Shown: positions 2,262 to 20,555, counted from the first letter of the stretch. The stretch: DNA of 64,000 nt from an uncultured Chloroflexia bacterium (GCA_963799675.1 CAWCXQ010000007.1:118077-182076); one strand, 5' to 3'. Notes: generated by a model not told the origin, from the sequence alone. Numbers and translations: made by a program.

Positions 2262-2983
2262 GGCGCCACCTGCCCTGCCGCGCCGGGAGCGCGCGCGGCC
2301 ACGATCCGGCCCATGCGCGCCGATTCCTCGCGCTGCCACTCCAGGCGCGCCAGCTGGTAGCGGCGCAGCATCAGGTAGCCCCAGGCCAGGCTGAGCGCCA
2401 GCGCCATGCTGACCAGGGCGGAGACGAAGACGAGCGGGGCGGCCGGGTTGAGGATGCGGTCAGGTGAGCCGATGGTCGCGGTCTGGTGCAGCCCGCGCCA
2501 CCAGATGACGCTGAAATGGACGATCGGGATGTCGATCGCGGCAACCAGTCCCACCACCGCCGCCCGCGTCGCGCGGCGCGCCGGATCATCGGTCATGCGC
2601 CTGAGCAGCAGGTAGCCGACATACAGCGCCAGGAGGAGCGCCGTGGTGGTGAGCCGGGGATCCTCCCATTGCCAGTAGACGCCCCACACCGGCCTGCCCC
2701 ACATCATCCCGCCCCAGATCGCAAAGGCGGTGAAGAGGACGCCGATCTCCGCGCCCGCGAGCGCCACGGCGTCGAACCGCGGGTCGCGTCGCCAGAGCCA
2801 GAGAACGCCGGCCAGGGCGGTCACGGCGAAGGAGAGGTAGGCGACCCAAGCCGATCCGACGTGCACGTACATGATCCGCTGCGCGTCACCCTGGTTCAGG
2901 TCGGCTGGCACGACGAGGAGACCGACCGCGGCGGCCGCAATGACCGAGGCAGCTGCAGCGAGGCCCAGGATGCGAGCCTTCAT
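2258..2983 (-). CDS. ccmC: Heme exporter/cytochrome c biogenesis protein CcmC
   Basis: RIMYVHV, WGRPVWGVYWQWEDPRLT (WWD domain), HFSVIWWRGLHQ. Confidence 0.93.
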   Translation of the reverse strand: MKARILGLAAAASVIAAAAVGLLVVPADLNQGDAQRIMYVHVGSAWVAYLSFAVTALAGVLWLWRRDPRFDAVALAGAEIGVLFTAFAIWGGMMWGRPVWGVYWQWEDPRLTTTALLLALYVGYLLLRRMTDDPARRATRAAVVGLVAAIDIPIVHFSVIWWRGLHQTATIGSPDRILNPAAPLVFVSALVSMALALSLAWGYLMLRRYQLARLEWQREESARMGRIVAARAPGAAGQVAP

Positions 2984-3672
2984 CACTCCTCCAGCAGAAA
3001 CCGGTAGGTGGCGGCCCCGGCGATCAGCATCACGACGTCGAAGAGGGCCAGCAGCTGGAGCCAGGAGCCCAGCTCGCCGAACGGATCGCCGGCCAGCGCG
3101 GCTGCGGTCGCCTGCACGGCGGCGAGGAGAAGCGGCGCGACGATCGGCAGCATGAGCAGCGGCAGCATCACCTCGCGAGCCCGCATTCTCACCGTCAGCC
3201 CCGCGTAGAAGGTGCCGACCGCCGCGAAGCCGACGGTCCCGAGCAGGAGCGTCGCCAGCAGCCACGGCCAGGCAGTCGCGAGATCGATCCCGTACAGGAT
3301 GGCGACCGTCGGCAGCAGCACGCCGCCCAGGACCAGCATCACGGCCGATCCTGCGAGCGCCTTGCCGGCATAGATCGCGCGGCGCTCGATGGGGTAGAGG
3401 GCGAGCTGTTCGAGGGCGTCGTCCTCGGTCTCGACCAGGTGCAGACGGCCGACCGCGAGCAGCCCGGCGAAGACGATCGCCAGCCAGAGGAGTCCGGGGG
3501 CCGCCTCGGCCAGCCGCCGCGAGTCGGGGCCCAGCGCGAATCCGAAGAGCAGCAGCACGAGCGCGGCGAAGAAGAGGGTGCTCACCGCGGCGTGCCGGCC
3601 CCGCAGCTCGGAGAGGGCGTCTTTGCGGGCGATCGCCAGCGCGATGCGAGCCTCGGCGCGCACGCCGTTCAC
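2983..3672 (-). CDS. ccmB: Heme exporter permease CcmB
   Basis: ARKDALSELR, APGLLW, REVMLPLLMLP; about 6 TM segments; GTG start. Confidence 0.9.
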   Translation of the reverse strand: MNGVRAEARIALAIARKDALSELRGRHAAVSTLFFAALVLLLFGFALGPDSRRLAEAAPGLLWLAIVFAGLLAVGRLHLVETEDDALEQLALYPIERRAIYAGKALAGSAVMLVLGGVLLPTVAILYGIDLATAWPWLLATLLLGTVGFAAVGTFYAGLTVRMRAREVMLPLLMLPIVAPLLLAAVQATAAALAGDPFGELGSWLQLLALFDVVMLIAGAATYRFLLEE

Positions 3673-4407
3673 GCCGCGCCCGCCGCGACCGGCCGGCCGG
3701 CACCGACGCCTATCGGTTCGAGGCTGACGCCGGCCGCCCTCGACGGCGGACACGAGGCCCGCCTCGAGGTGCAGTGTTCCATCGACAACCGCGAGCAACC
3801 GCTCGACCGCGTGCGAGGCCACGAGCACCGTCGCGCCGACCTCCCGCCACGCCGCCAGCAGACGGTCGATCAGCTCCATGCCCTCCACGTCGAGCGCAGC
3901 ATATGGCTCATCGAGCAGGACGAGGCTCGGCCCCGAAAGGATCAGGCGCCCCAGCGCCAGGCGTCGGCGCATGCCGGCGGAGAAGGTGCGCACCCGCCGC
4001 TCGGCGACGGCCTCCAGGCCCACCTCGCCCAGGACGGTCGCCTGGCGCTGCGTGCGCTCCTCCGGCTCGAGGCCAAGCATCGTCGCGGCGAAGGCCAGGT
4101 TCTCCCGTGCCGTCAGGTCGTCGTAGAGGCCGCTCGCGTGCGAGAGATAGGCGATCCGCTGCCGGACGAGGTGGGGATTGCGTGAGACGTCCAGCCCGTC
4201 GACCTCGGCCCGGCCGAACGATGGTGTGAGCGCGGTGGCGAGGACGCGTAGCAGCGTGGTCTTTCCGGCTCCATTCGGCCCCAGCAGGGCGATGGCGCGT
4301 CCGCGCTCGACGCGCACGGAGATGCCGGCCAAGGCAGGGTAGCCTGCAAACAGGCGCGCCAACTCCGCCGTGACCACAGCGGGCGGCGGCGTGTCGAAAG
4401 CGCCCAT
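3669..4407 (-). CDS. ccmA: Heme exporter ATPase CcmA (frameshift near 3' end fuses it to ccmB in the ORF track)
   Basis: GPNGAGKTT, FSAGMRRR, LLDEP; the alternative frame after about 3735 ends in a TGA overlapping the ccmB GTG. Confidence 0.9.
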
Positions 4408-5986: not shown

Positions 5987-6523
5987 ATGCCGGCCGTCGC
6001 CTCCGACCCTACCCCTGCACCGCGGCGCTTCGAGGAGATCTACGACGACCACGTGGTTGGCATCTACCGATTCATCTACGCCCGGCTGGGGAACCGCCCG
6101 GATGCCGAGGACCTGACCGCGCAGGTTTTCATGCGCGCCGTCGAGCAGCTCGATACCACGCGAGCGCCGGGCCAGATCGCGAGCTGGCTGTATCGCGTCA
6201 GCCAGAACGCCATCGCCGACTACTGGCGGGCCTTCTACCGGCTGCCACTGGTCGGGGCCGACCATGTCGCCCCCGGCTGGGAGCCGGTCGACCTCAGCCG
6301 CGATCTGCCCGAGGAACGGAACGATGGCTCGACGGCTCGTGTCGAGGCACTCCTCGGCCGCCTGCCCGCGAACTACCGCCGCGTGCTCGAGCTGCGCTTC
6401 CTGCGACGCCTCTCGGTGGCGGAGACGGCGAGCGAGATGGGGATCAGCCGCGGCAACGCGAAGGTCCTCCAGTACCGGGCGCTGCGCAAGGCAGCGCTGC
6501 TGGGAGAGCCGACCGATGGCTGA
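5987..6523 (+). CDS. ECF RNA polymerase sigma factor
   Basis: Region 2 DAEDLTAQVF and WLYRVSQN; region 4 LPANYRRVLELRF...ETASEMG...QYRAL; 178 aa. Confidence 0.93.
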   Translation: MPAVASDPTPAPRRFEEIYDDHVVGIYRFIYARLGNRPDAEDLTAQVFMRAVEQLDTTRAPGQIASWLYRVSQNAIADYWRAFYRLPLVGADHVAPGWEPVDLSRDLPEERNDGSTARVEALLGRLPANYRRVLELRFLRRLSVAETASEMGISRGNAKVLQYRALRKAALLGEPTDG

Positions 6524-7322
6524 GCACGAAGAGGCCGGCGAGCTCCAGTCGTCCGAGCGCCTCGAGCGCTACCTCGACGCGCTGCTGCGCGACGAGCGGC
6601 CATCCCCGGAGGAAGTGGCCGGAGGAGACGAGGCGGAGATCGCGCGTCTCGCCGCCGAGCTCGCCGCCGCGGCACGACAGGAGGGCCCTGACCCCGCCTT
6701 CATCGAGCAGCTGCGGCTCCGAATGCGCCAGGCGGACGAAGGGATCGCCGCGGTGCAGGTGCCACCGCCGGTGCGACCCGCACCGGAGCCCACGAGCCAA
6801 ATGGCACGCATTCGGCTCTCGCGCCGATCTCTGCTGCGGAGCGGGCTGGGAGCGGCCGCCGGCCTGGCCGCCGGGCTGGTGGGCGGCGTCGTCCTCCGAG
6901 ACCTCGCAACGCCAAACCGGGATCCCATCTGGGACGATGGCGGCGGCCTGGTGGCAGGCGACGGGCAGTGGCAGCAGGTGGCCACGCTGGCCGACGTGAC
7001 GCCCGGAACCGCTGCTCGATTCAGCACGGTGGCGTTCGATGGCTATCTCGTCAATGACGGCGGTGAGATCCGAGCCCTCTCTTCGGTCTGCACCCACATG
7101 GGCTGCACCCTCCAGTACCGCGCCGAGTGGCACGACCTGCGCTGTCCGTGCCACGGCGCCAGCTTTGATCTCAAGGGAGAGCTCGCCAATGGACGGTCAC
7201 GCTGGCGCGAAACCGGCGGCTACCGCGGCGATGCCACCGCCTATCCGATCGAGCTCCCGCCCCTGGTCCGGCCGAAGGTCAAGGTGGCCGATGGCGCGAT
7301 CTTCGTGTGGACCACGGCCTAG
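6516..7322 (+). CDS. Anti-sigma-like N-terminal domain + twin-arginine/TM + Rieske [2Fe-2S] domain
   Basis: Overlaps the sigma stop; LERYLDALL...PDPAFIEQLR helical N-domain; SRRSLL and hydrophobic helix; CTHMGC and CPCHG. Confidence 0.8.
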   Translation: MAEHEEAGELQSSERLERYLDALLRDERPSPEEVAGGDEAEIARLAAELAAAARQEGPDPAFIEQLRLRMRQADEGIAAVQVPPPVRPAPEPTSQMARIRLSRRSLLRSGLGAAAGLAAGLVGGVVLRDLATPNRDPIWDDGGGLVAGDGQWQQVATLADVTPGTAARFSTVAFDGYLVNDGGEIRALSSVCTHMGCTLQYRAEWHDLRCPCHGASFDLKGELANGRSRWRETGGYRGDATAYPIELPPLVRPKVKVADGAIFVWTTA

Positions 7323-7541
7323 CCGCTGATCACGCCCACCAGGTAGCTGATCACGTAGGGGATCGCCAGCACGGCGAGGATGACCGCCAGCACGATGCCG
7401 GCGTACAGGAAGAGCGAGAGGTCCGGCGGCTCGGCACGCGGAGGCGGCGGAGTCAGGCGGCGGGCCAGGCGGACCGGCCGTCGGGGAGGCCGATGCTGAT
7501 ACGGATGCTTGATGCAGGTCGATCCGGGGCAGGTCGGGCAT
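7319..7541 (-). CDS. Small membrane protein (apparent frameshift near 5' end)
   Basis: Frame ending ...PPDLSLFLYAGIVLAVILAVLAIPYVISYLVGVISG*; ATG at 7541 is out of frame by 1 nt. Confidence 0.5.
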
Positions 7542-7543
7542 GA

Positions 7544-8526
7544 TCAGGCGTAGACCTCCGGATTGACACAGCTCGGCAGTGGATCCCCGCGCAGGCCGGC
7601 GAGCAGGTTGGCAGCCGCGATCGCCGCCATCTTGCCGCGGGTCACCCGCGAGGCGGACGCAATGTGCGGCACCACCAGGCAGTTCTCGCAGGTGAGGAGC
7701 GGGTCGTCGGGCGCCATCGGCTCCGGATCGGTCACGTCGAGGGCGGCCGCAAAGATCTGGCCGTCGCGCAGGGCATCATAGAGCGCGGCCTGGTCGACCA
7801 CGGGCCCGCGCGACGTGTTGACGAGGATGGCGGTCCGCTTCATGCGCGCCAGGGCCGACGCGTTGATCAGGTGGCGAGTCTCATCGGTCAGGTTCGTGTG
7901 CAGGCTGACCATGTCGGAGGTGGCCAGCAGCTCATCCATCTCCACCCGGCGCGCATTCAGAGCGCGCTCCTCGTCGGGAGTGGCGGCGGTGGACGTCGTG
8001 GTACACGACCTTCATGCCGAAGCCGGAGGCACGCTTCGCCATCTCGCGCCCGATCCGGCCGAAGCCGACGATGCCGAGGGTTGCGCCGTGCAGGTCGACC
8101 CCCATCAGGAGCATCGGTCCCCACGTCTTCCAGCGGTCCGCCGCGGACGTAGCGTGATCCCTCGTCGATCCGCCGCGCGGCGGCCATCAGCAGGGCGAAG
8201 GCGAGATCGGCGGTCGTCTCGGTGAGCACGCCCGGCGTGTTGCCGGCCGGGATTCGACGGCGGGTGAGCTCCGGCACATCGAGGTTGTCAAAGCCGACCG
8301 CATAGTTGCTCACGACCTTGAGCTGCGGGCCGGCGGCATCGAGCAGCTCGGCGTCGACCCGGTCGGTGAGCAGCGTCAGCAGCCCGTCCATCCCGGCAGA
8401 CCGCCGCAGGAGCTCGTCGCGGGGCGGGGGCAGCTCGTCTGTCCAGAGGTCGAGCTCGCAGGCATCGCGAACCGGATCGAGGCCCTCGTCCGGAATGACA
8501 CGCGAGACGAAGACCCGCGGGCTCAC
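7544..8526 (-). CDS. D-2-hydroxyacid dehydrogenase (glyoxylate reductase/D-glycerate dehydrogenase), at least 2 frameshifts
   Basis: NYAVGFDN, NTPGVLTETTAD, GIVGFGRIG, NTSRGPVVD, LDVTDPEP and PHIASA spread over three frames. Confidence 0.9.
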
Positions 8527-9740
8527 GACACGCGCGCCGTCTGCGCGCTGGCCAGGTCGCCGGTGCGCTGCAGCCGGCCGAGCGACTCCGCGACGCGGTC
8601 GAGCGCGCGCTGACAGGTTCTCGCGAGAGTTGGCGTACGAGAAGCGCAGGTAGCCCTCCCCGTGCCGCCCGAACGCGGTGCCGGCCAGGCCGCAGACCCC
8701 GGCGTCGTAGAGCAGGTGGTCGGCGATCTCGACGCTCGTGCGCCCGAAGGAGCTGACGTTCGGGAACGCGTAGAAGGCGCCGTGCGGCAGTCGGCAGCTC
8801 AGCCCGTCGATCGCATTCAGCCCGTCGACGATGAGCGAGCGGCGCGCCGATGAACTCCTCGCGCATGGCGGTCGCATCGTCCTGCGGCCCGGTCAACGCC
8901 TCGATCGCACCGGCCTGCGCGAAGGCATTGGTGCACGAGACGCTGTTGATGATCAGCCTGCTGAAGGCCGGCACCAGCCATTCCGGCAGGATGCCGTAGC
9001 CGAGCCGCCAGCCGGTCATCGCGAAGGTCTTCGAGAATCCGTCAAGCGTGATCGTGCGGTCCGCCATGCCTGGCAGCGTCGCGATCGAGAGCGGCTCTCC
9101 CTCGTACTGCAGCCGCGCCGTAGATCTCGTCGGCGAGGACGACCAGGTCTCGCTCGACCGCGCAGGCCGGCGACGGCCGCGAGGTCCTCATCGGTCAGGA
9201 TCGACCCCGTCGGGTTGTGGGGCGAGTTGAGGATGACCAGCCGCGTGCGATCGGTCACCAGCGACGCGAGCTCGTCGACGTCGACCCGGAAGTCGTTCTC
9301 CTCGCGCAGCGGAGCGGCCACCGGCGTCCGCCCACGAAGGCGGCCATGCTCTCGTAGATCGGGAAGCCGGGGTTGGGGTAGATCACCTCGTCGCCGCGGT
9401 TCACGAGGGCCAGCATCGCGTAGAACATGATCGGCTTGGCGCCGGGCGTGACGACCACCCGCTCAGCGGAGTGTCTCGATCCCCTTCCAGCGCAGCACGT
9501 CGGCGGCGATCGCCTCCCGCAGCGGCTGCGATCCCGGGCGACGGCGGTGTAGTGCGTCATCCCGTCATTGAGCAGCGCGTCCGACGCGGCCTCGCTGACA
9601 TGGCGCGGGGTGTCGAAGTCGGGCTCCCCCATCTCGAGGTGGATGACGTCCCTGCCCGTCGCCTCCAGGGCGCGGGCGCGTGCCGCCGCCTCGAACGCGG
9701 TCTCGGTCCCGATCCGCTCCATGCGGGTGGCGAGTTTCAC
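8523..9740 (-). CDS. PLP-dependent aminotransferase class I/II, several frameshifts
   Basis: GEPDFDTP, VVTPGAKP, NSPHNPTG, DGFSKTFAMTGWRLG, GAFYAFP and YLRFSYA across frames. Confidence 0.9.
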
Positions 9741-9941
9741 GTGGTCAAGCCTCCTCCCGGAGGTGGATCGTTCTCTGGTCGCGGAGCCCCAGTGTACCGA
9801 CCGGCGGGGGGAACGAACGGTCCACCTGCAGCGGCCGATCGGCAGTTGTCGTACGCGCGTGGCACGCTGCTATACTTTCCAGAGCGAACCCGAAGCCGTG
9901 CATGCGCAGCCCCTCCGCTGCGACAGGAGAACACGAACCCC

Positions 9942-10367
9942 ATGACGATGTCCGAACAGCCACGCGAACCGATCTCGCTGAACGGCGCGCTCATCTCGAG
10001 CGAGACCCTGGTCAGCGTGACCGAGGCCGCGGCGCGCAAGGTCGTCGAGCTGCGCTCACGCGAAGGCAAGGAAGAGGCACGCCTGCGGCTCTTCGTGAAG
10101 AGTGGCGGGTGCAGTGGCTTCAGCTATGGGCTGGCTTTCGATGACCGCGTCAACGAAGGCGACAAGGTCGAGGACCACGACGGCGTGCCGATCGTGATCG
10201 ACCAGTTCAGCCAGCAGTACGTCGACGGTGCGGAGATCGACTACGTCGACTCGCTCATGGGCTCCGGCTTCGCGATCAACAATCCCAACGCGGTCTCGAG
10301 CTGCGCCTGTGGCTCATCGTTCAATACCGATGGGTCGCCCGGAAAGGCCGGGGGCTGCGCGCACTGA
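9942..10367 (+). CDS. A-type Fe-S carrier (HesB/IscA/ErpA family)
   Basis: GGCSGFSY, GAEIDYVD, NPNAVSSCACGSSF. Confidence 0.93.
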   Translation: MTMSEQPREPISLNGALISSETLVSVTEAAARKVVELRSREGKEEARLRLFVKSGGCSGFSYGLAFDDRVNEGDKVEDHDGVPIVIDQFSQQYVDGAEIDYVDSLMGSGFAINNPNAVSSCACGSSFNTDGSPGKAGGCAH

Positions 10368-11194: not shown

Positions 11195-12646
11195 CTACTC
11201 GCCTGACCCGTCGTCCTCGAAGACCGATGCGGCGGCGGTCACCGGCGCTCGCCGCTCGCCGCCAAGCGCGGCGGGCAGCGGCCGGGAGAGCGGCACGGGA
11301 TCGACGAAGCGGTCGACCAGCTCACGCGTTCCGGCCAGGCCCAGCCGATCGAAGAGGAGCCCCATCTTGGCCCGCAGGTGAGCCGCGACCTCCTCGGCGG
11401 CATCCGCGGGCAGCGTCCAGAGCTGACGCTTGAAGGGGCCGATCGCCTTCTTCCGCGACTTGTAGAGGAACTGCTCGTCGGTCTGTCCATCGGTGCGCTC
11501 ATCGGCGCAGTTGGCTCGCGTCCATTCCATCATCTCCCCGCGCAGCTCCGCAGGCAGCCCGCCGTCGTCGTAGAGGATGTTCTGGAAGCCGGTGGCCAGG
11601 TGGATTTCGGCCGTGCCGCTGGCCGGGAAATGATGGAAGGCGTCGTCCGGGAGGGTCGACGCGCCGTGCTGGACGCAGCCGGCGAGCCCGTACTCCTCCC
11701 GCGCGACCGTCGAGAGCCGGCGCAGCGCGTCGAAGTCGATCTTGACCTCGGCCATCGAGCCATCGGGGAGCGGAACCCCGCCATGGCTCGTGCCGGTCTG
11801 GATGCTCACCTTGCTGAGCCCCACCAGGTCAGGGCCGACGGCGGCCCGGTATTCGTCGAGATAGGCCCGCAGCTCCTCCTCGGTCGAGTTCGCCTTTCCC
11901 ACCTCGCCGATCTCGCCACCTACGGACGCGGTCACGCCGTCGGGCTCGAGGCGGCGGACGAGGCGGGTGAGCTCAACCGTGTTCTCGGAGTTGACACGCT
12001 GCTGATCGGCGACGGTTGGCAGTGAGAGGTCGACGAGGGTCGACGAATCGATGTCGATGTTCAGGAAGCCCGCCGCGATCGCTTCCCTCGTCAGGGCGCG
12101 AAGGCCCTCGAGCTCCTGGTCCGGGTCCGATCGCCAGCTCGTCGCATTGAACTGGAAGTGGTCTCCCTGCAGGAAGACGGGACCTCGCCAGCGCTCGCGA
12201 ATTGCGGCCCCGAGAATGGCGGTCGCGTACTCTGCCGGCCGCTGAGCGGTATATGCCATTTCGCTCTTGGCGATCTCGAAGATCAGCGCCCCCGCGTCGC
12301 GTTCGCGCGCCGCGATGAACGCCTGTCGAGCGGTCAGGTAGGCGGCCGCACGCACGTTGATCGCCGCTGTGGTGAAGCGCGTGGGCTCGAACTCGCCCCG
12401 GCCGCGCGCGCGGTACAGGGCATCGATGGAAGCAGACCCGCAGCCCAATGCCTGGCTCGCCGACCAGATCACCCAGCCACACGCCTCTCGAAGCGACGCG
12501 TCCTCGTTGAAGACTGCCTCGAACACGATCTCATCGACCAGCTCGTCGCGGAATCGAGGCTCGTCGAGAAGCTCGAGTCGGTCGCCGGCGATCCGCGCAA
12601 CGCCATCGAGGCGGGCGAGCAGGTCGTCAGCCGATCGGTAGCTCAT
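11195..12646 (-). CDS. Class II fructose-bisphosphate aldolase (long form)
   Basis: FLQGDH, IDIDSS, GGEIGEVG, GTSHGG, VQHGAS, IHLATGFQN. Confidence 0.88.
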   Translation of the reverse strand: MSYRSADDLLARLDGVARIAGDRLELLDEPRFRDELVDEIVFEAVFNEDASLREACGWVIWSASQALGCGSASIDALYRARGRGEFEPTRFTTAAINVRAAAYLTARQAFIAARERDAGALIFEIAKSEMAYTAQRPAEYATAILGAAIRERWRGPVFLQGDHFQFNATSWRSDPDQELEGLRALTREAIAAGFLNIDIDSSTLVDLSLPTVADQQRVNSENTVELTRLVRRLEPDGVTASVGGEIGEVGKANSTEEELRAYLDEYRAAVGPDLVGLSKVSIQTGTSHGGVPLPDGSMAEVKIDFDALRRLSTVAREEYGLAGCVQHGASTLPDDAFHHFPASGTAEIHLATGFQNILYDDGGLPAELRGEMMEWTRANCADERTDGQTDEQFLYKSRKKAIGPFKRQLWTLPADAAEEVAAHLRAKMGLLFDRLGLAGTRELVDRFVDPVPLSRPLPAALGGERRAPVTAAASVFEDDGSGE

Positions 12647-12685
12647 TGCCGTCCATGCTGCAGGGTCGAGACCACTCTAGCGCGG

Positions 12686-13035
12686 TCACCGCAGCGCGGA
12701 GGCGAGGGTGAAGGCCAGCAGCGGAGCCACCACGAGGCCGATCCCGGCCGCCAGGAGGTACCAGTCGCGCGCCGCACGCTCGTCGGCCACGCGGCGCAAC
12801 CGGAGACCCTCGACCCACCAGAGCACCGCCGAGAGCCCGATGGCGTAGAGCGCGGCAGCCAGCGCCACGACGCCGATGGCGAACGGCCGCACCACCGAGC
12901 AGTCGCCGAAGGCGATCGGTCCGCCGCCGGGGCAGGGAGCGCCGAGCTCCGCCGCGATCAGGCCCCCTGCCGAAGCAAGGACGACGGCGAGCCAGCCGAG
13001 GTGTGCGAGCAGCCGCCGGGACGTGGTTCGCGCGA
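12686..13035 (-). CDS. Hypothetical 3-TM membrane protein (start uncertain)
   Basis: Three hydrophobic helices and a C-x10-C loop in the 3' part of ORF 12686..13525; no clear start codon. Confidence 0.5.
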
Positions 13036-13041
13036 CTCCAG

Positions 13042-13623
13042 TCAGCGCGTCGAGTAGGCGGCCGACCGTGCGCTGGCCGCCTCGGCGTCCAGGAGCGTCA
13101 GGCGTCGGTATTCGAAGTAGAGGTAGACCAGCGTGGCCGCGCCCAGCGCCGCGGTCACCGCTCCGAGCGCCAGCGAGAGGAGCGGGAAGAGGGGCGGAAT
13201 GAACGAGCCGCCGGCCAGGTTGAAGGCGAGGAGCGGAATGATGATCAGGAGCACGAGCAGGAGCTGGAGGAAATCGAGCATCCGGATCAATGACCACGCG
13301 AAGCCCCGCCGGCCGCGGGCGGCCTGGCTCCAGATCACCAGAACGATGATCGCGGTGAAGTTTCCGCCGCCCACCAGCGCGGCGATGATGAAGCCGACAT
13401 CCGCGCTGAAGTGCAGGAACGGGATCACGGTGGTCGTGAGGTAGTACGCGTAGTTCGGGATGTACATCAGCAGGAAGTAGACGTACAGGAAGAACGGAAC
13501 GCCCTTCAGCACAGCGACCAGCCACGTTTCGCGGCCGTAGAGCAGCCAGTTCATGAAATCCTCGACGAAGGCCAGCCCGCGGCTGAGCCTGCCTCGGCGG
13601 CGCGGGACGGAGTAGCTGGTCAT
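13042..13623 (-). CDS. Hypothetical multi-TM membrane protein in Rieske/cyt b operon
   Basis: MTSYSVPRRRGRL...; about 4 hydrophobic helices; start overlaps the cytochrome c stop. Confidence 0.75.
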   Translation of the reverse strand: MTSYSVPRRRGRLSRGLAFVEDFMNWLLYGRETWLVAVLKGVPFFLYVYFLLMYIPNYAYYLTTTVIPFLHFSADVGFIIAALVGGGNFTAIIVLVIWSQAARGRRGFAWSLIRMLDFLQLLLVLLIIIPLLAFNLAGGSFIPPLFPLLSLALGAVTAALGAATLVYLYFEYRRLTLLDAEAASARSAAYSTR

Positions 13624-14455
13624 CGGTCGCCTACTTGTGCGTCGAGGAGGAAGGTGATCACGGCCTGCAGCTGCGCGTCGCTGAGGGCGTCCGGTCCGTA
13701 CGCCGGCATGCCGGTGGCGGTGCCGCCGTTGTAGTTCTTCCCCGAGTCGCGGATCCACTGCTCGAGGAACTTCGCGTGGATCCGCCTTGTAGTCGGCCTG
13801 CAGCTTGGCGAGCCCGCTGATGGGTGTCGGCAGGTCGGTGACCGGCGCGCTTCCGATCTTCTGCAGGTTGGGATAGGTCCCCTCCACCCCGGCCAGGTCC
13901 TGGCCATGGCAGCTGGCGCAGGCTGGGGCCGTCGTCAGGTTATGGAAGACGTCATCGCCCGCGGCCGCCGTGTTCGGGGGTGGCGTCCCCGCCGGGGCGC
14001 TGGCCGCAGCCTCCTTGGCCCAGCTCTCGACCAGGGCGGTCAGCGCGTCGATCTGCTGCACGTTGAGCGCGCCGCCAACCTCCGCGCTCCAGGCGGGCAT
14101 CGGCGACTTGACGTTCCCCGACACCACGACCCCGCCGAAGCGGATGACGAGGTTGACGTAGTGCGAGTTCGCGGTCAGCTTCGTGGCGATGCTGGGCGAG
14201 TGGAGGTTCGGCGCCTTGACCCCCGGTATCGCCCACCTCGCCGCCCTTCCCCTCCGGCCCGTGGCACTGCGCGCAGCCGGGGTTGGCCGGGTGCGCGGCA
14301 TCGGCCTTCGCGAAGAGCTCCTTGCCGTAGGCGATCAGGTCGGCCTTCTCGGCGTCGAGCCCCGCGGTGCGCCGCGGCGTGTCGGTCACCCAGTAGAAGA
14401 CGGTGAACAGGGCGAGCGCGGTGATCAGCACCACCCCGAGCGTCTTGAGCCGCAT
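13620..14455 (-). CDS. Membrane-anchored diheme cytochrome c (2 frameshifts)
   Basis: N-terminal TM; CAQCH with distal MPAW; CASCH with distal MPAY. Confidence 0.85.
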
Positions 14456-15080
14456 CTACAGGCCGGTGCAGTGCTGCATCTGGTCCTTCTGGCGCGGGTC
14501 GAAGGTGACCGTCCCGACCGGAGGGCCCGTGATCTTCTGGCGCGTGTCGACGGTGTAGATCCCGCCCTTGTCGACCTTGGTGTCGAACCGATCCATCCCG
14601 CGCGGGGCCGGCCCGTCGCGCTTCTCGCCCAGCACGGTGTACTTGCTGCCGTGGCAGAGGCACTCGAACCAGTGGCTCTTGTCGCAGAGCTGCGGAATCT
14701 GGCAGCCGAGGTGCGGGCACTTGCGGTACAGCGCCAGGACCTTGGCGCCCGGGATCCGGCACGGGGGTCTTCTTTCCGTCGACCAGGTTCTCCGCGGCCG
14801 GCACGTTGACGAGGAAGAGGTTGGCGGGGCCGTAGATATAGGGCTGGCCCGTCGCCCAGTCGGGCGCGAGGGCGTTGATGGCGGCTGCCGTGCCGATCGG
14901 GATCAGCCCGCCGAGCCCGGACGTCACGTTCGGCCATAGGAAGGCCCAGGTGCCCCCGAAGAATTCGAGCGTCAGGATCCCGATCCCGATGCCGAGCATG
15001 CGCCGCATGAACGTGCGGCGGCTGATCTCGCCGATCGGTGGCCCGGGCACCTCGCCATAGGCCGGCGGATGCTGCGTCAT
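14456..15080 (-). CDS. Rieske iron-sulfur subunit of Rieske/cyt b complex (1 frameshift)
   Basis: Tat motif SRRTFM and TM; manual translation after the shift gives CPHLGC, CLCHGSKY and GPAPRGMDRF. Confidence 0.9.
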
Positions 15081-15694
15081 AGCGTGAAGAAGATCCCCTG
15101 CCAGGGCCAGACCCAGTTCCAGCCGGGCCCGCGGAAGAACATGCCGATGAAGGTCACCAGCAGGCCGCCCACCATGAGGCTCAGGAAGAAGACCCACGCC
15201 AGCTTGCGGTCGCGTGCCGCCTTGTAGGGCGACCGGTCGATGTAGGCGATGAGCGCGATGCCGATGAAGTAGACGGGCGGCAGGAAGATCCCCACCACCG
15301 TGCCGTTGAAGTAGGAGAGGAGCTCCTGCAGGCCGAGGAAGTACCACGGCGCCTTGGCGACGTGCGGCGTGACGGACGGGTTGGCCATCTGCTCGAGCGG
15401 CGCGCGAATGAAGAAGGCGGTGACCACCAGCAGGGCGCTGATCAGCATCGCCATCACGAACTCGGGGCGCAGGAGATGAGGCCAGGTGAGGACCGTCTCG
15501 TCGGGCCGCTTGTCGACCCGCACCATCGATTCCTGCTTCACGTACGCGAGCAGCCGGAACCGCTCCGTGCCCGGCACGCCGGGAGGGCCCGGCAGCTTGG
15601 GGCCCTGGGTGACCGGAGCCAGCGGAGCCTCTGCGGGTGCCTGCGATGGCGCGTTCTTGTCCGCGGTGCGGTTCGGTCGCTTCTCGATCGTCAT
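15077..15694 (-). CDS. Cytochrome b C-terminal part (subunit IV/PetD-like)
   Basis: WPHLL, ANPSVTP, KAPWYFLGLQELL, YIDR, RGPGWNW. Confidence 0.88.
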   Translation of the reverse strand: MTIEKRPNRTADKNAPSQAPAEAPLAPVTQGPKLPGPPGVPGTERFRLLAYVKQESMVRVDKRPDETVLTWPHLLRPEFVMAMLISALLVVTAFFIRAPLEQMANPSVTPHVAKAPWYFLGLQELLSYFNGTVVGIFLPPVYFIGIALIAYIDRSPYKAARDRKLAWVFFLSLMVGGLLVTFIGMFFRGPGWNWVWPWQGIFFTL

Positions 15695-15707
15695 CGGCCC
15701 GCCTCCC

Positions 15708-16442
15708 TCACACCGGTCCTGAGATGCCGCCGTCCTTCCTGATGCGCCAGAAGTGCACCACCAGAAGGATAGCGGCGATCAGCGGAAACGCGATCACGTG
15801 CATCACGTAGAAGCGAATCAGGGTTCCCTGGCCGACCTCGATGCCGCCCAGCAGGAGGAAGCTCGACTCGCTGTTGATGAGGGGCGCGTAGGTGGCCATC
15901 TGGCTACCCACCGTGATGGCCCAGAACGCGATCTGGTCCCACGGCAGCAGATAGCCGGTGAAGCTCAGCCACAGGGTCGAGAAGAGCAGGAGGGTCCCGA
16001 TCACCCAGTTGAACTCGCGCGGCGGCTTGTAGGCGCCGTGGTAGAAGACGCGGATCATGTGCAGGAAGACGGTCAGGACCATCAGGTGCGCGGCCCAGCG
16101 GTGCATGTTGCGAACGAGCTCGCCGAACGCGACCGACGTCTCCATCTCCTGGATGTTCTGGTAGGCCAGCGCGACCGACGGGACGTAGAAGAACATCAGG
16201 TAGATGCCCGTCACCGTGAGCGCCAGGAAGAGGAAGAAGCTGATGCCGCCAAGGCAGAAGGTGTACGTGTAGCGGACCGCGTGGCGCTTGACCCGGACCG
16301 GGTGCAGGTGCAGGAACACGTTGTTCATCACCGCCAGCGCACGGGTGCGGCTGGTCGTCGGGTAGGGCTGGCGGAAGAGGCTGCGCCATGCTTCGGACTC
16401 CTTGACGACCCGCATCAGGTCGCCGGGACCGGGGATTCTCAT
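15708..16442 (-). CDS. Cytochrome b N-terminal part (b6/PetB-like)
   Basis: FCLGG, RNMHRWAAHLMV...HM, PREFNW, GYLLPWDQ, RFYVMH...HF. Confidence 0.93.
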   Translation of the reverse strand: MRIPGPGDLMRVVKESEAWRSLFRQPYPTTSRTRALAVMNNVFLHLHPVRVKRHAVRYTYTFCLGGISFFLFLALTVTGIYLMFFYVPSVALAYQNIQEMETSVAFGELVRNMHRWAAHLMVLTVFLHMIRVFYHGAYKPPREFNWVIGTLLLFSTLWLSFTGYLLPWDQIAFWAITVGSQMATYAPLINSESSFLLLGGIEVGQGTLIRFYVMHVIAFPLIAAILLVVHFWRIRKDGGISGPV

Positions 16443-18412
16443 CGCTCCACCGCCTGCCCGGCCTGCTGGCCGACCTGGCCGAGCACGTTGTCCTTGTAGC
16501 TCTCCAACAGTACCTTCCCGTCCGGCGTGAAGCGCTCGAGCTCCAGCCGATCCATCGTGATGCAGTTCGTCGGGCAACGCTCGACGCACAGGTTGCAGCG
16601 GATGCAGCGCTCCTCGTCGATGACCATCGCGATCCCGCGCGGCCACGACTGGAACAGGTCGACCTCCGGGTCATCGCCGCCGACCTGCGCCTTGTCGACC
16701 ATGTAGATCACGCCCTCGGGGCAGACGTCGGCGCACAGCCCGCACAAGATGCAACGTGGCCCGTCGATATTGATGTTGTGGTTGCACTGCAGGCAGCGAC
16801 TCCCCTCGGCGATGGCGCTCCGCGTGTCGTAGCCGACCTCGACCAGGCTGACGAAGTCGCGCCGCAGCTCCGGAGGCGCCATCGGGATGTGCTGCCGCCG
16901 AATCGCCTCGTACTTCTCCGGCATGTCGTGATCGAGCGCCTGGGTGATCGTCGCGCGATTGATGACGGGCAGCTCTTCGAGCTCAAGGCCGCGCAGCCCG
17001 GCGAGCCAGCGGTCGACCGATCGGGCGGCTCGCCGACCGAGCCCGGCAGCCTCGATGATGGTTGCCGGCCCCGTCATGAAGTCGCCCACCGCGAACACGC
17101 GCTCGGAGCTCGTGCCGAACGTATCCGCATTGACGGTCACCTTGCCGCGGTCGATCGCGAAGCGCAGGTCGTTCATCTTCCGGCCGCTGGCATCGGTCGG
17201 CGTGGTGCCGTTGAGCGGAGGCGTGCGCCACGAGGAGATCGAGCCGCCCTCGACCACGGCGCGGGTATCGGTCACGCCGATATGCCGGTTGAGCTTGGCG
17301 CCGTATTCGCCGAGCACGTTGTTGTCGGGCGCCTGGCTCGTGCACGGGATCACCATGTCGCAGGGGACGGTGAACTCGCTGCCCGGGATCGGCTCTGCGC
17401 TGCGCCGTCCCGAGGCGTCGGGTGGCCCGAGCTGGGTCCGCTGGAAGACCATCCCGCTGACCTTGCCGTCGGCACCGGCAAGCACCTCGACCGGAGACGA
17501 GAAGAATTCGAACTTCACGCCCTCGAAGCGTGTCTCGTGCTGCTCCTCCTCGTCGACCACCATCTCCTCCGGACCGCGGCGGTAGAGGATGGTCGAGCTC
17601 TTGGCACCCAGCCGCAGGGCCGTGCGGGACGAGTCCATGGCCGTGTAGCCGCCGCCCACCACGACGACGTGCTCGCCAACCCACTGCGGCTCGCCGAGAT
17701 TGGCGCGCTTCAGGAAGTCGACCCCGTAGATCACGCCGTCGAGCTCCTCACCGGGGACGTTCATGGCGACCGGGTACATGCAGCCGGCGGCCACCACCAC
17801 CGCGTCGTGCCGCTCTTCGAGCTGGTCGAGCGTCACGTCGCGCCCGATCTCGACGTTGTAGTGGAACTCCACTCCGTGCTTTGCGACCCAGTTCACGTCG
17901 AGCTCGATCACGTCGCGCGGCAGGCGGAAGGCCGGCACCCCGATCAGCGTCGTGCCGCCGCCCGACGGCAGGGCCTCGTAGACATGCACCTCGTGGCCGT
18001 AGGTCGCCAGCTCCTTCGCCACCGACAGGCCGGCCGGTCCCGCGCCGATCACGCCGACGCTCTTCCCGGTCGGCGGACCAACCTCCACCCGGTCGGGCAT
18101 GTTGTTGCCGTAGTGCCAGTCAACCAGGAACCGCTTCATGGCCCGGATGGCGAGCGGCTTGTCGATGTCGGCGCGGCGACAGGCTTTCTCGCACGGAGCG
18201 CTGCATACGTAGCCGCAGATCGCCGCCACCGGGTTCGGGTCACGGGCCAGGATGTAGCCCTCTTCGAAGCGGCCCTCGGCGGCAAGCATCAGGTAGCCGC
18301 GGCAGTTGGTGTTGACCGGACACCCTTCCTGGCACTCGATGTTGCACTGAAGCCAGTCCACGCCGACCTCGGCTGTCTGGAACCTCAGCGGAATCGCGCT
18401 ATCGGAGATCAC
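16439..18412 (-). CDS. GltD/NfnB/DsrL-like NAD(P)H:FAD oxidoreductase with C-terminal 2x[4Fe-4S] ferredoxin domain
   Basis: CQEGCP, CGYVCSAPCEKAC, GAGPAG, GGGYTAMD, YRR, RCLQC, CILCGLCADVCP, CIRCNLCVERCP. Confidence 0.9.
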   Translation of the reverse strand: MISDSAIPLRFQTAEVGVDWLQCNIECQEGCPVNTNCRGYLMLAAEGRFEEGYILARDPNPVAAICGYVCSAPCEKACRRADIDKPLAIRAMKRFLVDWHYGNNMPDRVEVGPPTGKSVGVIGAGPAGLSVAKELATYGHEVHVYEALPSGGGTTLIGVPAFRLPRDVIELDVNWVAKHGVEFHYNVEIGRDVTLDQLEERHDAVVVAAGCMYPVAMNVPGEELDGVIYGVDFLKRANLGEPQWVGEHVVVVGGGYTAMDSSRTALRLGAKSSTILYRRGPEEMVVDEEEQHETRFEGVKFEFFSSPVEVLAGADGKVSGMVFQRTQLGPPDASGRRSAEPIPGSEFTVPCDMVIPCTSQAPDNNVLGEYGAKLNRHIGVTDTRAVVEGGSISSWRTPPLNGTTPTDASGRKMNDLRFAIDRGKVTVNADTFGTSSERVFAVGDFMTGPATIIEAAGLGRRAARSVDRWLAGLRGLELEELPVINRATITQALDHDMPEKYEAIRRQHIPMAPPELRRDFVSLVEVGYDTRSAIAEGSRCLQCNHNINIDGPRCILCGLCADVCPEGVIYMVDKAQVGGDDPEVDLFQSWPRGIAMVIDEERCIRCNLCVERCPTNCITMDRLELERFTPDGKVLLESYKDNVLGQVGQQAGQAVER

Positions 18413-18479
18413 TGGCCTCGTCGTCGCTCTCTGGCGGGTTGCACGTTGAGCTGGCTGGACGGAAGGTGCGGCGCCCTCG

Positions 18480-18509
18480 ATGCTACCGTTCGCGCGCTCG
18501 TGGTGTCAA
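18480..18509 (-). promoter_or_regulatory. Putative sigma70 promoter of the flavoprotein-Rieske/cyt b operon
   Basis: TTGACA-N18-TAGCAT on the minus strand. Confidence 0.6.
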
Positions 18510-18521
18510 AGCGGCGACCGC

Positions 18522-20555
18522 TCAGGACGGGGCCGCGAAGTACGCGGCGAACACGCGCCGCACGAGCGGAGCCGCGTCGGCCCCGCCGGTGGCCAGGTGA
18601 ACCCTCGCCAGAAGGGTGGTGCCGACGATCGAGGGGTCATCCGCCGGGACGAATCCGGGGAACCAGGCGTCCGGGTCGGGACCGCCCGTCTCCGCGGTCC
18701 CGCTCTTCCCCGCCACCTGGAGCCCGAAGCCGGCGAAGGCGAGATAGCCGGTCCCGTACGGCAGGTTGACGACCGCCTTCAGCGTCTCGACCACGTAGCC
18801 AAGCTGCGCCGGCGTCATCGGGATCTTGCCCTTGATGGCGCTCTTGACGGTCTCGACCACGTGCCCGTCGGGCAGCGTTGCCGCGGTGACCAGTCGCGGC
18901 ACCCAGAGCGTGCCACCGTTGCCGATGGCGGCGTAGGCATTCGTCAGCTGCAATGGCGTGCCAAGGAAGAAGCCCTGGCCGATGCTCATCTGGATCTGGT
19001 CGAACGGCCCATATTCCGCGTTCCGCTCCCGCGCCAGCCACTCGGCGTCGGGGAGGACCCCCGTCTCCTCGACGAGATGCTTCACCCCCGTCGCCTGGCC
19101 GAAGCCAAAGTCGTGGAGAAGCGCCGGAAAGACGGTCGGATCCGCTTGGTACACGGAGAGGCCGAGGGGCATGTAGGTGGTGTTGCAGCTGAAGGCCATC
19201 GCCTCGGCCAGGGAGACGAGGCCGGGCAGCGAGTGGCGCTCGTAGTTCACCGCGGTGAAGTCGGGGCTGTAGGTCCAGGACGGCGGACAGGTGACCAGGG
19301 TGGTGGGCCCCGCAACCCCGCTCTTCAGTGCTGCGGCAAGCGTGAACGGCTTGAACGACGATCCCGCGGGATAGGCGGCCTGCACGGCACGGTTGAGGAT
19401 CTGGGCCGATTGCTGTCGGGCGAGCGGCTGCCCGCTGAACGTGGTGCCCAACGTCATCCCGTTGGGGTTGAAGAGCGGTGCGCTGGCCAGGGCCCAGATA
19501 TCGCCGCTCTTCGGATCGAGCGCGACCGTCGCGGCCTCCGCATACGGAGCGATTGCCGCCTCGGCGGTTGCCTGCAGCCCGGCGCGGAGCGTGATCGTCA
19601 GGTTCGCACCGGGAACGAGATCGCGATGCAGCACCACCTTGCTCGGTCCGTCCGGAGGGACCGCGGTCAGATCGAACCCCGGCGAGCCGCGCAGGAGCGC
19701 ATCCGCCCCGAACTCGAGCCCGCTGCGCCCCACCATGTCGCCGGGCTGGTAGCCCTTCGCGCGCAGACCCGGGAGCTCCTCGGCGGTCACCTCGCTCACG
19801 TAGCCGATCGTCTGGCCTGCGAGCCACTCCTGGGGATAGACGCGCTTGCCGTCCTTGCGCGTCTCCGCGTAGACGGTCTTGTCGAGCCCGATGATCCGTC
19901 CACGCGGCGAAGTCGTGCGGCTGAGCGCAAGTGTTCCGTCGGCGCCAAGCTCCGGGAACAATGCGCCGGGGGTCCAGCGGACCTGCCAGCCGCCGGCGCC
20001 CTGGGTAAGGGTCAGCTCGCGCTCGAGATCCACGGTCCCGAAGAGATCCGTCGTGAAGGCGAGCTGCAGCGGGACCGCCATCGCCGGTACCGGCCCCGGC
20101 AGTGGGGCGGTCGGATCGAAGCTCGCCGCCGGGGACGGCTCCGGGGTCGGGCTGGCGGCGCTGGCGGAGGGGTCGACCGTCGGGCGAGGCGTCGGGGTGG
20201 GCGCGGGCAGGTCGGGCGGCCGCGCCTCGGGAGCGACGCTCGACGGGCGAGCTGCCCCCGCGGTCGCATCCAGAGCGGTCACGCGAGCGAGGTCTGCGAA
20301 GCTGGCGTACAGGTCGGTGAATACACGCTCGGGATACCGCTCGCGGTCGGCTGGGGCGAGAAGCCGGTACATGGCCGCAGGGTCGCCCTCCGCCCACGCC
20401 GCGAGATAGGCCTGCGCCACCGTCCTGGCCGCGTCAGGGGGTGCCACCGGGGCCGGGGTTGGATACGGGGTTGGGCTCGGCTGGTTGATGCCACACGCAG
20501 CGAGCACCAGGCTCACGATCAGCAACGTGAGCGGCAGGCGCCGCCGGGTTCTCAT
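18522..20555 (-). CDS. Class B penicillin-binding protein (lipoprotein, MecA-N-like domain)
   Basis: Lipobox LAAC; GRSGLE; SSFK, SCN and KSGTAE transpeptidase motifs. Confidence 0.9.
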   Translation of the reverse strand: MRTRRRLPLTLLIVSLVLAACGINQPSPTPYPTPAPVAPPDAARTVAQAYLAAWAEGDPAAMYRLLAPADRERYPERVFTDLYASFADLARVTALDATAGAARPSSVAPEARPPDLPAPTPTPRPTVDPSASAASPTPEPSPAASFDPTAPLPGPVPAMAVPLQLAFTTDLFGTVDLERELTLTQGAGGWQVRWTPGALFPELGADGTLALSRTTSPRGRIIGLDKTVYAETRKDGKRVYPQEWLAGQTIGYVSEVTAEELPGLRAKGYQPGDMVGRSGLEFGADALLRGSPGFDLTAVPPDGPSKVVLHRDLVPGANLTITLRAGLQATAEAAIAPYAEAATVALDPKSGDIWALASAPLFNPNGMTLGTTFSGQPLARQQSAQILNRAVQAAYPAGSSFKPFTLAAALKSGVAGPTTLVTCPPSWTYSPDFTAVNYERHSLPGLVSLAEAMAFSCNTTYMPLGLSVYQADPTVFPALLHDFGFGQATGVKHLVEETGVLPDAEWLARERNAEYGPFDQIQMSIGQGFFLGTPLQLTNAYAAIGNGGTLWVPRLVTAATLPDGHVVETVKSAIKGKIPMTPAQLGYVVETLKAVVNLPYGTGYLAFAGFGLQVAGKSGTAETGGPDPDAWFPGFVPADDPSIVGTTLLARVHLATGGADAAPLVRRVFAAYFAAPS

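Follow-up and report, generated by a model that had tools for sequence, protein, structure and literature searches.

On the minus strand of a 64,000-nucleotide stretch of DNA (GCA_963799675.1 CAWCXQ010000007.1:118077-182076; hereafter the window, meaning the whole stretch that was analysed), six tightly packed genes lie behind a promoter-like site and form an operon, spanning 18509-13042, for a Rieske/cytochrome b complex headed by an iron-sulphur (FeS) flavoprotein (Table 1). The host is a soil bacterium of the class Limnocylindria (Chloroflexota), represented by a metagenome-assembled genome (MAG). An earlier interpretation made from the nucleotide sequence only (the sequence-only reading) had described these six genes at the same coordinates behind a single promoter, and all elements were found again on the minus strand. 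The site TTGACA-18-TAGCAT, 68 nt upstream of the flavoprotein start, is the sole one of its kind in 12600-18900, with a mean of 0.4 in shuffled sequences. The 4-bp overlap reported between the flavoprotein and cytochrome b was seen as an ATGA that joins the stop of the one to the start of the other, and a second ATGA overlap joins subunit IV and the Rieske gene. Subunit IV starts 13 nt past cytochrome b, behind GGGAGG, and the cytochrome c ATG follows immediately after the Rieske TAG. The G+C content of the operon region is 66-70%, and Pfam supports every gene assignment except that of the 193-aa membrane protein.

Table 1. Coordinates of the operon features in the window
Feature	Position	Strand	Evidence
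Sigma-70-like promoter candidate, TTGACA-18 nt-TAGCAT	18480..18509	(-)	10/12 consensus positions; consensus match only
FeS flavoprotein, 657 aa	16439..18412	(-)	Pfam Fer4_20, Pyr_redox_2, Fer4_7
b6-type cytochrome b, 244 aa	15708..16442	(-)	PF00033, E 6.6e-42
Subunit IV, 205 aa	15077..15694	(-)	PF00032
Rieske [2Fe-2S] protein	14456..15080	(-)	PF00355; two frames in the window
Membrane-anchored dihaem cytochrome c	13620..14455	(-)	CAQCH + CASCH; three frames in the window
Membrane protein, 193 aa	13042..13623	(-)	No Pfam match

The flavoprotein and its partner subunits

The flavoprotein consists of an N-terminal 2x[4Fe-4S] module (Fer4_20, residues 21-103), FAD and NAD(P)H Rossmann domains (Pyr_redox_2, 118-378), a linker with an invariant CxxC pair (C540, C543) and a C-terminal 2x[4Fe-4S] module (Fer4_7, 553-617), and this Pfam assignment agrees with the layout previously drawn from N-terminal cysteines, FAD and NAD(P)H motifs and the C-terminal cluster motifs. 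Fifteen cysteines are invariant in 33 sequences of all lineages, namely C27, C31, C70, C74, C78, C540, C543, C554, C557, C560, C564, C603, C606, C609 and C613. The AlphaFold2 model is confident overall, with a predicted local distance difference test score (pLDDT) of 82.7 and a predicted template modelling score (pTM) of 0.84; its low-confidence parts are a family-specific insert (383-403) and the C-terminal tail. The insert comprises about 40 residues (~372-412, DNA ~17177-17299), is present in same-family flavoproteins only and has a pLDDT below 50. No transmembrane (TM) helix was predicted by a hydropathy scan. Residues 3-375 match chains of the NfnB/GltD type, the best being 9n5u_A and 9bov_A, both NfnABC chains, and 8oh5_C (StnC), followed by 4ylf_B and 5jca_L and then by the GltD chains 2vdc_G and 6s6s_G. 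The ferredoxin domain with 2x[4Fe-4S] at residues 540-620 is similar to FwdF and NuoI, and a 5t5i chain is among the sequence matches to this part. Over its full length the protein is 38% identical to a protein encoded in the Rieske/cytochrome b clusters of Brocadia, with the same domain order; the Brocadia cluster flavoproteins align full length at 38-39% identity, the comparison having been made with Brocadia and not with Kuenenia.

The clear sequence and fold relatives of residues 20-375, together with public annotations that read 'glutamate synthase beta subunit-like', could suggest an ordinary GltD or NfnB with its partner encoded elsewhere, which is nevertheless very improbable. A strong GltB match (PF01645) was obtained in just two of five near-complete same-family genomes, all of which keep the flavoprotein, and GltB was not found in the other three. 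The window's own genome has no convincing GltB either, the best PF01645 hit being a fragment of 23.6 bits, so that the true GltD with a gltB partner elsewhere, which the sequence-only reading had named as evidence against itself, did not come to light. The additional C-terminal part of 280 residues with its 2x[4Fe-4S] is foreign to both GltD and NfnB, and the constant neighbour is cytochrome b. As had been stated before, no gltB or nfnA adjoins the operon, the flanking genes checked being those for a penicillin-binding protein (PBP) transpeptidase, PIG-L, an SMC-like ATPase and a class II aldolase-like protein; NfnA elsewhere in the genome was not searched. GltD identity was accordingly rejected for a protein of 657 aa with a C-terminal Fer4_7 domain and a GltB partner in only 2/5 relatives, GltD having ~450-480 aa and lacking such an additional ferredoxin domain.

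Cytochrome b has b6 as its best solved match (1.8e-47, versus ~3e-29 for bc1). It contains the haem histidines H114, H128, H215 and H230, a CLGG haem cn motif (C63), an N-terminal H45 and the C-terminal WRIRKDGGISGPV. Subunit IV has three TM helices as predicted by a crude hydropathy scan, a conserved cytoplasmic N-terminal extension of ~70 residues and the Qo motif APWY at residue 115, and the Rieske protein has a Tat-like SRRTF signal, a TM anchor and the boxes CPHLGC and CLCHGSKY. The intact cytochromes c of relatives are 266-270 aa long and contain two cytochrome c domains of class I type. Other Limnocylindria families encode something else in place of the dihaem cytochrome c: in one, cytochrome c is fused to a cupredoxin (369 aa) and a Kelch-repeat protein comes next (L021:3750-4859 and 2292-3746), and in another a monohaem cytochrome c of 360 aa is found (L022:3621-4703), so that the high-potential acceptor module is interchangeable. 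The 193-aa membrane protein, with four TM helices and an N-terminal helix, always follows cytochrome c in the window's Limnocylindria family and has 27 invariant columns in 28 sequences. Its five-helix model is confident (pLDDT 90.4), but neither Pfam nor a Foldseek search of the PDB at E <= 0.001 gave a match, and the ESM Atlas returned hypothetical clusters only; it may be a lineage-specific subunit or assembly factor.

As assembled, the window splits the Rieske gene over two frames and the cytochrome c gene over three, a point overlooked when both had been treated as plain genes. To judge from the sequence comparisons, these frame shifts are evidently assembly indels and the genes are intact in nature, since the extra bases are absent both from a same-genus genome and from soil-metagenome contigs, and unrelated genes of the assembly are shifted as well. 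In the same-genus genome (G001), with 83% DNA identity across the region, the Rieske gene is unbroken, the dihaem cytochrome c is 270 aa long and the membrane protein 197 aa, and relative to G001 the window has one extra base each at ~14753, 14224, 13773 and 13644. Contigs of four public soil-metagenome runs omit one base at 14747/14748, 14220/14225, 13773 and 13643; all soil-run contigs showing a gap at these four places concur, and further contigs of run X4 add depth at 14220 and 14748. The surroundings were compared for the extra bases other than the one near 13643, which falls at the 3' end of the cytochrome c gene, and all three sit within or next to short stretches of C or G (CCCGGG, GGGGG, CAC). 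Elsewhere in the window's own genome NuoD is in four pieces (G000:C8:102016-102687) and one COX1 is in two frames (G000:C11:328427-329760), both being whole in relatives; indel errors seem to run throughout this assembly, which would account for a completeness of 64.9% despite just 19 contigs. The fall of four frame-breaking single-base insertions within 1.2 kb might be read as genuine decay of the operon, but this is scarcely credible in view of the near-identical contigs from four soil runs without each extra base, the short C/G runs, the shifted unrelated genes and the low completeness with so few contigs.

Gene linkage and conserved residues across phyla

A flavoprotein match was present in 31/31 genomes of the class, the window's own genome included, many of these matches being at paralogue level. 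A full-length orthologue with 84-96% identity occurs in 16 of the 18 same-family genomes (14/16 without G005 and G015, which are flagged as unpublished and on which nothing else stated here depends), and one with 54-63% identity in 10 of 12 other genomes of the class. In all 14 loci cut from the class the flavoprotein gene is followed by cytochrome b, with subunit IV and Rieske next in 12 and the contigs ending in the remaining two. The same holds for public Limnocylindria loci: cytochrome b lies directly downstream of the flavoprotein in 74 of 80, and the contigs of the other six end within 83 nt, which gives a linkage of 74/74 assessable loci, the order flavoprotein-cytochrome b-subunit IV-Rieske being found in 62.

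For other lineages, five distant representatives of the same architecture, obtained from a search of 1.84 billion proteins, served as the query and 80 loci were taken. Cytochrome b lies within 5 kb of the flavoprotein in 62 of these, in the orders flavoprotein-Rieske-b-IV (39 loci), flavoprotein-b-IV-Rieske (10 loci), Rieske-b-IV-flavoprotein and others. The loci cover Brocadia, Scalindua, Nitrospinota, Thermodesulfobacteriota/Syntrophaceae, many Acidobacteriota, and also Actinomycetota, Eremiobacteraceae, Zixiibacteriota, Neomarinimicrobiota, Ignavibacteriaceae, other Chloroflexota and further lineages. It is clear that the flavoprotein-equipped operon is neither rare nor new in kind. The synteny survey that had been proposed as a check thus shows the linkage to be conserved, whereas the gene order, which had been called atypical, recurs in 62 Limnocylindria loci and in ten loci of other phyla and is not unique. 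One Limnocylindrales MAG (L161) has a second flavoprotein-linked cluster, of the Acidobacteriota type, and two Limnocylindria loci (L192 and L193, of G006 and G009) encode a canonical fused b-IV-c complex with PEWY.

Several residues travel with this linkage. In the 136 linked cytochromes b aligned with the window, His45 (motif N-V-F-L-H) is found in 74/74 sequences from Limnocylindria and in 61 of 62 from other lineages, the sole exception (L142) having a canonical b6-like N-terminus. Wherever the sequence is covered, R24, the four haem histidines, R233 and K236 are retained. His45, R233 and K236 align with Brocadia residues, and their equivalence to the Kuenenia numbering is presumed from that alignment. 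The haem cn cysteine C63 is present in all 73 Limnocylindria sequences versus 16/62 others, Brocadia included; Acidobacteriota mostly have Tyr at this position. APWY is found in 63/63 Limnocylindria subunits IV and in 56/56 other linked subunits IV with a match, while unlinked Limnocylindria complexes have PEWY. The Ser of Rieske box II is shared by 62 of 63 Limnocylindria sequences and by 56 of 60 other pattern matches, the residue after it being Tyr in Limnocylindria and mostly Phe elsewhere. In G006 and G009 the second, unlinked cytochrome b is fused to IV and c in one long protein, which has TLGS in place of CxGG, has PEWY and lacks the His45 motif.

The flavoproteins of Limnocylindria form one clade, with 99-100 support in the Shimodaira-Hasegawa-like approximate likelihood ratio test (SH-aLRT), in trees from quick searches whose deep nodes are weak. 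The clade next to them contains Nitrospinota, Brocadia, Desulfobacterota and Chloroflexia MAGs, and they stand apart from a clade of Acidobacteriota, Eremiobacteraceae and Actinomycetota that also holds the second copy of the Limnocylindrales MAG. In a careful tree the linked cytochromes b are split from the unlinked second copies of G006 and G009 with 100/100 support. The cytochrome b phylogeny, also suggested earlier as a check, places the linked copies in one clade and reproduces the terminal groups of the flavoprotein tree, but its deep order is different.

Beyond the six genes, a terminator scan gave no convincing minus-strand terminator downstream of 13042. A hydrophobic open reading frame (ORF) of ~70-119 aa occupies ~12686-13045 (-), in the space that separates the membrane protein gene from the aldolase-like one. 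Relatives conserve it as well (e.g. L190 3039-3392); CTG codons are its only start candidates before 12895, ATG, GTG and TTG starts all being absent there. At 9471-10367 (+), ~2.7 kb from the operon, lies a gene for Fe-S biogenesis of the HesB/IscA type (PF01521), and a gene of the same type (L122:7484-7849) lies ~600 nt after a stand-alone flavoprotein gene of Thermomicrobiales. Both cases of proximity may be coincidence.

Comparison with known Rieske/cytochrome b complexes

The closest described systems are found in anammox bacteria, where the Rieske/cytochrome b operons include a gene for a putative NAD(P) oxidoreductase whose proposed role is the formation of NAD(P)H (Hauser 2025, PMC12954380); Dibrova 2017 (PMC5600118) likewise describes oxidoreductase genes in the bc operons of some planctomycetes, and both accounts agree with the anammox background of the sequence-only reading. 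As described by Hauser 2025, quinol-driven NAD(P)+ reduction is a proposal of Kartal et al. The AlphaFold3 models of that study have one reductase per cytochrome b dimer and a new haem b between His43 (or His62) of both monomers, near C-terminal Arg and Lys residues of cytochrome b. The study further reports a Rieske Ser/Tyr pair, two Kuenenia Rieske proteins at +303 and +335 mV, of which Kuste4569 is the one measured at +303 mV, the structural homologues 9bp5 (the same chain as 9bov) and 5t5i for Kuste4570, and a third, canonical complex in Kuenenia. According to Dibrova 2017, de Almeida 2016 found Kuenenia complexes containing both proteins.

The window shares with the anammox complexes (Kuenenia Kuste4569-4574 and Kustd1480-1485; Brocadia L112 and L114) a four-helix cytochrome b of b6-like type whose subunit IV is a protein of its own, the haem cn motif CxGG, an N-terminal cytochrome b His that is presumably the equivalent residue, the Rieske Ser and Tyr as in Kuste4569, and, encoded in the operon, an FeS flavoprotein with FAD and NAD(P) domains that is homologous to theirs (38% identical to that of L112 and L114) and has its best PDB relatives in common with Kuste4570. 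It differs in that its cytochrome c is dihaem and not hexa- or octahaem, that the operon encodes no HAO-like protein, that subunit IV has three TM helices by the crude hydropathy prediction instead of five, and that an extra 193-aa membrane protein is present. The multihaem cytochrome, the HAO-like subunit and the five-helix subunit IV may be anammox-specific additions and not defining features. Gene order also differs, the Brocadia order being Rieske-b-flavoprotein, as does the host, which is aerobic with complex I and aa3-type oxidases and in which a single complex III was detected, in contrast to three in Kuenenia.

A wider group is indicated by the short 'subfamily G' cytochromes b, which co-occur with large NAD(P)-binding cysteine-rich oxidoreductases (Dibrova 2017), a proximity found 'in many other cases' in the updated tree of that study. 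As far as can be told from its description (Dibrova et al. 2013, 2017), subfamily G resembles the window in its short CxGG cytochrome b, its NAD(P)-binding cysteine-rich neighbour and its patchy, broad spread, and relatives of this operon may already be in the supplementary tree of Dibrova 2017. The main text of that paper names Ktedonobacteria and contains 'Chloroflexi' 0 times, and its passages on these operons do not name Limnocylindria. Lücker et al. 2013 describe a bc-like operon of Nitrospina, the flavoprotein being unmentioned in the passages on it, and among the records listed by a literature search no title or abstract opening dealt with this complex in Limnocylindria or Acidobacteriota.

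Like b6f and the Firmicute bc complexes, the window has a split between b and IV and a CxGG covalent-haem motif, and b6 is its closest solved relative. The idea that stromal or cytoplasmic electrons enter an n-side haem, as in cyclic flow through b6f with FNR/ferredoxin, applies to the window too. However, APWY replaces PEWY, cytochrome f is missing, cytochrome b is extended at its N-terminus by 28 residues that include His45, and a dedicated flavoprotein is encoded in the operon where b6f has a loosely bound FNR. Relative to canonical b6f/bc1, all 119 linked subunits IV with a match, together with that of the window, have APWY, and the c subunit is of a dihaem class I type. NfnB, GltD and the Bfu-type NfnABC/StnABC enzymes resemble the flavoprotein in having an N-terminal 2x[4Fe-4S] followed by FAD and NAD(P)H domains, but here the partner is a membrane cytochrome b instead of NfnA, GltB or a NuoF-like subunit, and at its C-terminus the protein has a ferredoxin domain of its own and a conserved tail.

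A paralogue of the flavoprotein was observed in a complex I operon (L191, G002:C34:239000-251000, ORF 6004-8400, 798 aa), with a copy in the window's own genome (G000:C8:96714-98373). It follows NuoB, NuoD, NuoH, NuoE-like and NuoF-like genes, combines a NuoG-type 2Fe-2S N-terminus (Fer2_4) with Fer4_20, a GltD-like Pyr_redox_2 and a C-terminal 2x[4Fe-4S], and belongs to a set resembling the StnABC/NfnABC trio. From this paralogue, GltD-like NAD(P)H modules appear in this lineage to be attached to both complex I and complex III.

Proposed electron exchange with NAD(P)(H) and its direction

The complex probably exchanges electrons between NAD(P)(H) and its haems, and exchange with the n-side haems in particular is well supported by inference. 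In the proposed arrangement, a cytochrome b dimer, subunit IV, Rieske and dihaem cytochrome c would form a b6-type complex with the flavoprotein docked, presumably, on its cytoplasmic face. NAD(P)(H) would bind at the flavoprotein FAD, from which four or five [4Fe-4S] clusters, two in each of the terminal modules and possibly one on the invariant CxxC, would form a putative wire to the n-side of cytochrome b. There, a predicted extra haem b held by both His45 of the dimer would exchange electrons with haem cn and haem bH; by way of the Brocadia alignment, His45, R233 and K236 fit the His, Arg and Lys surroundings of the extra haem in the Kuenenia AlphaFold3 model. Quinol would be oxidised at a modified Qo site, with APWY and a Ser/Tyr-type Rieske, one electron passing downhill to cytochrome c and the oxidase and the second passing via the b haems to the flavoprotein to yield NAD(P)H, given a reduced quinol pool and available NAD(P)+. 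The electron exchange between NAD(P)H and haem b put forward by the sequence-only reading is supported by the conserved linkage, the distinctness from GltD and the homology to the Brocadia protein; between the directions it had allowed, no result decides.

The physiology of the host bears on that direction. Complex I genes and an aa3-type COX1 occur in the window's own genome as well as in four good relatives. Neither in the own genome nor in G012 (97% complete) was a cytochrome b found besides that of the operon, and an NrfD-family gene of the alternative complex III (ACIII) was found in 0/5 genomes; since neither another cytochrome b nor ACIII was found, the complex must also act as an ordinary quinol:cytochrome c reductase. 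By analogy with the anammox proposal, quinol-driven NAD(P)+ reduction has somewhat less than an even chance of being the direction of flow, and it is favoured because the Rieske Ser/Tyr and the Qo motif changes occur together with the n-side addition. The opposite course, in which the flavoprotein is an input and electrons pass from NAD(P)H through FAD and the FeS wire to the n-side haems and to quinone at Qi, would make it a non-pumping NAD(P)H:quinone reductase within complex III; it is a serious possibility, if rather improbable on balance. Such a flow would be downhill for any quinone and would parallel the feeding of haem ci of b6f by ferredoxin/FNR in cyclic flow. It is in keeping with the CxGG haem cn motif in 73/73 Limnocylindria cytochromes b, with the working Qi site that must exist where this is the only complex III found, as in the own genome and G012, and with the fusion of GltD-like modules to many acceptor enzymes (POR, OYE, DHODH, NuoG-like domains) as NAD(P)H inputs, while the quinone type that the reverse reaction requires was not established by the Mqn, MenA and MenB searches. 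Against it, a non-pumping route looks redundant in the presence of complex I, as Hauser 2025 argues for Kuenenia, and the travelling of APWY and the Rieske Ser with an n-side flavoprotein is left unexplained, though shared descent could account for it. A flavoprotein that is co-transcribed without being a subunit, acting as a soluble NAD(P)H:ferredoxin-type oxidoreductase or as an assembly or redox-sensing helper, would fit its lack of a predicted TM helix, the existence of stand-alone relatives and the absence of fusions to cytochrome b; this is improbable given a linkage kept across at least ten phyla despite changing gene order, the translational coupling by the ATGA overlap, the co-occurrence of the n-side residues His45, R233 and K236 of cytochrome b with the flavoprotein, and the Kuenenia complexes with both proteins for which Dibrova 2017 cites de Almeida 2016.

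Several observations weigh against electron exchange with NAD(P)(H), or against its use for NAD(P)+ reduction. A cytochrome b is missing near the flavoprotein in 18 of the 80 diverse loci, short contigs among them. Thermomicrobiales (L122:4812-6905, L126, L129) have a version of 697 aa that begins with a rubredoxin-like domain, lacks a cytochrome b gene within 5 kb and nests inside the clade of linked flavoproteins, and none of 19 longer relatives is a flavoprotein-cytochrome b fusion. The haem cn cysteine is lacking in 46/62 diverse linked cytochromes b, 40 of the 62 having Tyr instead. All linked cytochromes b fall in one clade, so that His45, APWY and the Rieske Ser may reflect common descent within that clade and not function; because all linked proteins are kin, the shared motifs are not independent evidence of function. 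An aerobic heterotroph with complex I has no obvious need for NAD(P)H from quinol. In G000, G002, G006, G012 and G014 the searches brought no known menaquinone pathway to light: MqnA/D (PF02621) was found in 0/5 genomes, menA reached at best 100 bits (cut-off 102) and menB 172 bits (cut-off 343), ubiquinone genes not having been searched. A high-potential quinone would make NAD(P)+ reduction unfeasible.

NAD(P)-linked function of a Rieske/cytochrome b complex has so far been argued almost only for slow-growing anammox enrichments, yet an entire class of common soil Chloroflexota carries the same module as a standard feature, and it occurs in many Acidobacteriota and other phyla, in some genomes as the only complex III. 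What is new here is the class-wide presence, the status as sole complex III and the family-wide His45 and APWY signatures; the kind itself is known and functionally unsolved. The wide occurrence makes the question of function testable in aerobic, partly cultivable organisms, and His45, R233/K236, APWY and the presence or absence of the haem cn cysteine provide signatures for mutation or for the sorting of genomes. The invariance of His45 across phyla lends comparative support to the extra haem b, independent of the AlphaFold3 prediction on which it has hitherto been based. It is possible, if doubtful, that the main or only complex III of these abundant aerobic soil bacteria is a machine with seven haems per dimer that splits quinol electrons between cytochrome c/oxygen and NAD(P)+, a reading that would cover Limnocylindria, many Acidobacteriota and some Actinomycetota and Eremiobacterota. 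If true, oligotrophs that feed their quinone pool from high-potential donors, such as trace gases, would gain reducing power independent of the proton motive force, and what appeared to be an anammox 'oddity' would become a general and ancient mode of Rieske/cytochrome b complexes marked by His45, APWY and the Rieske Ser.

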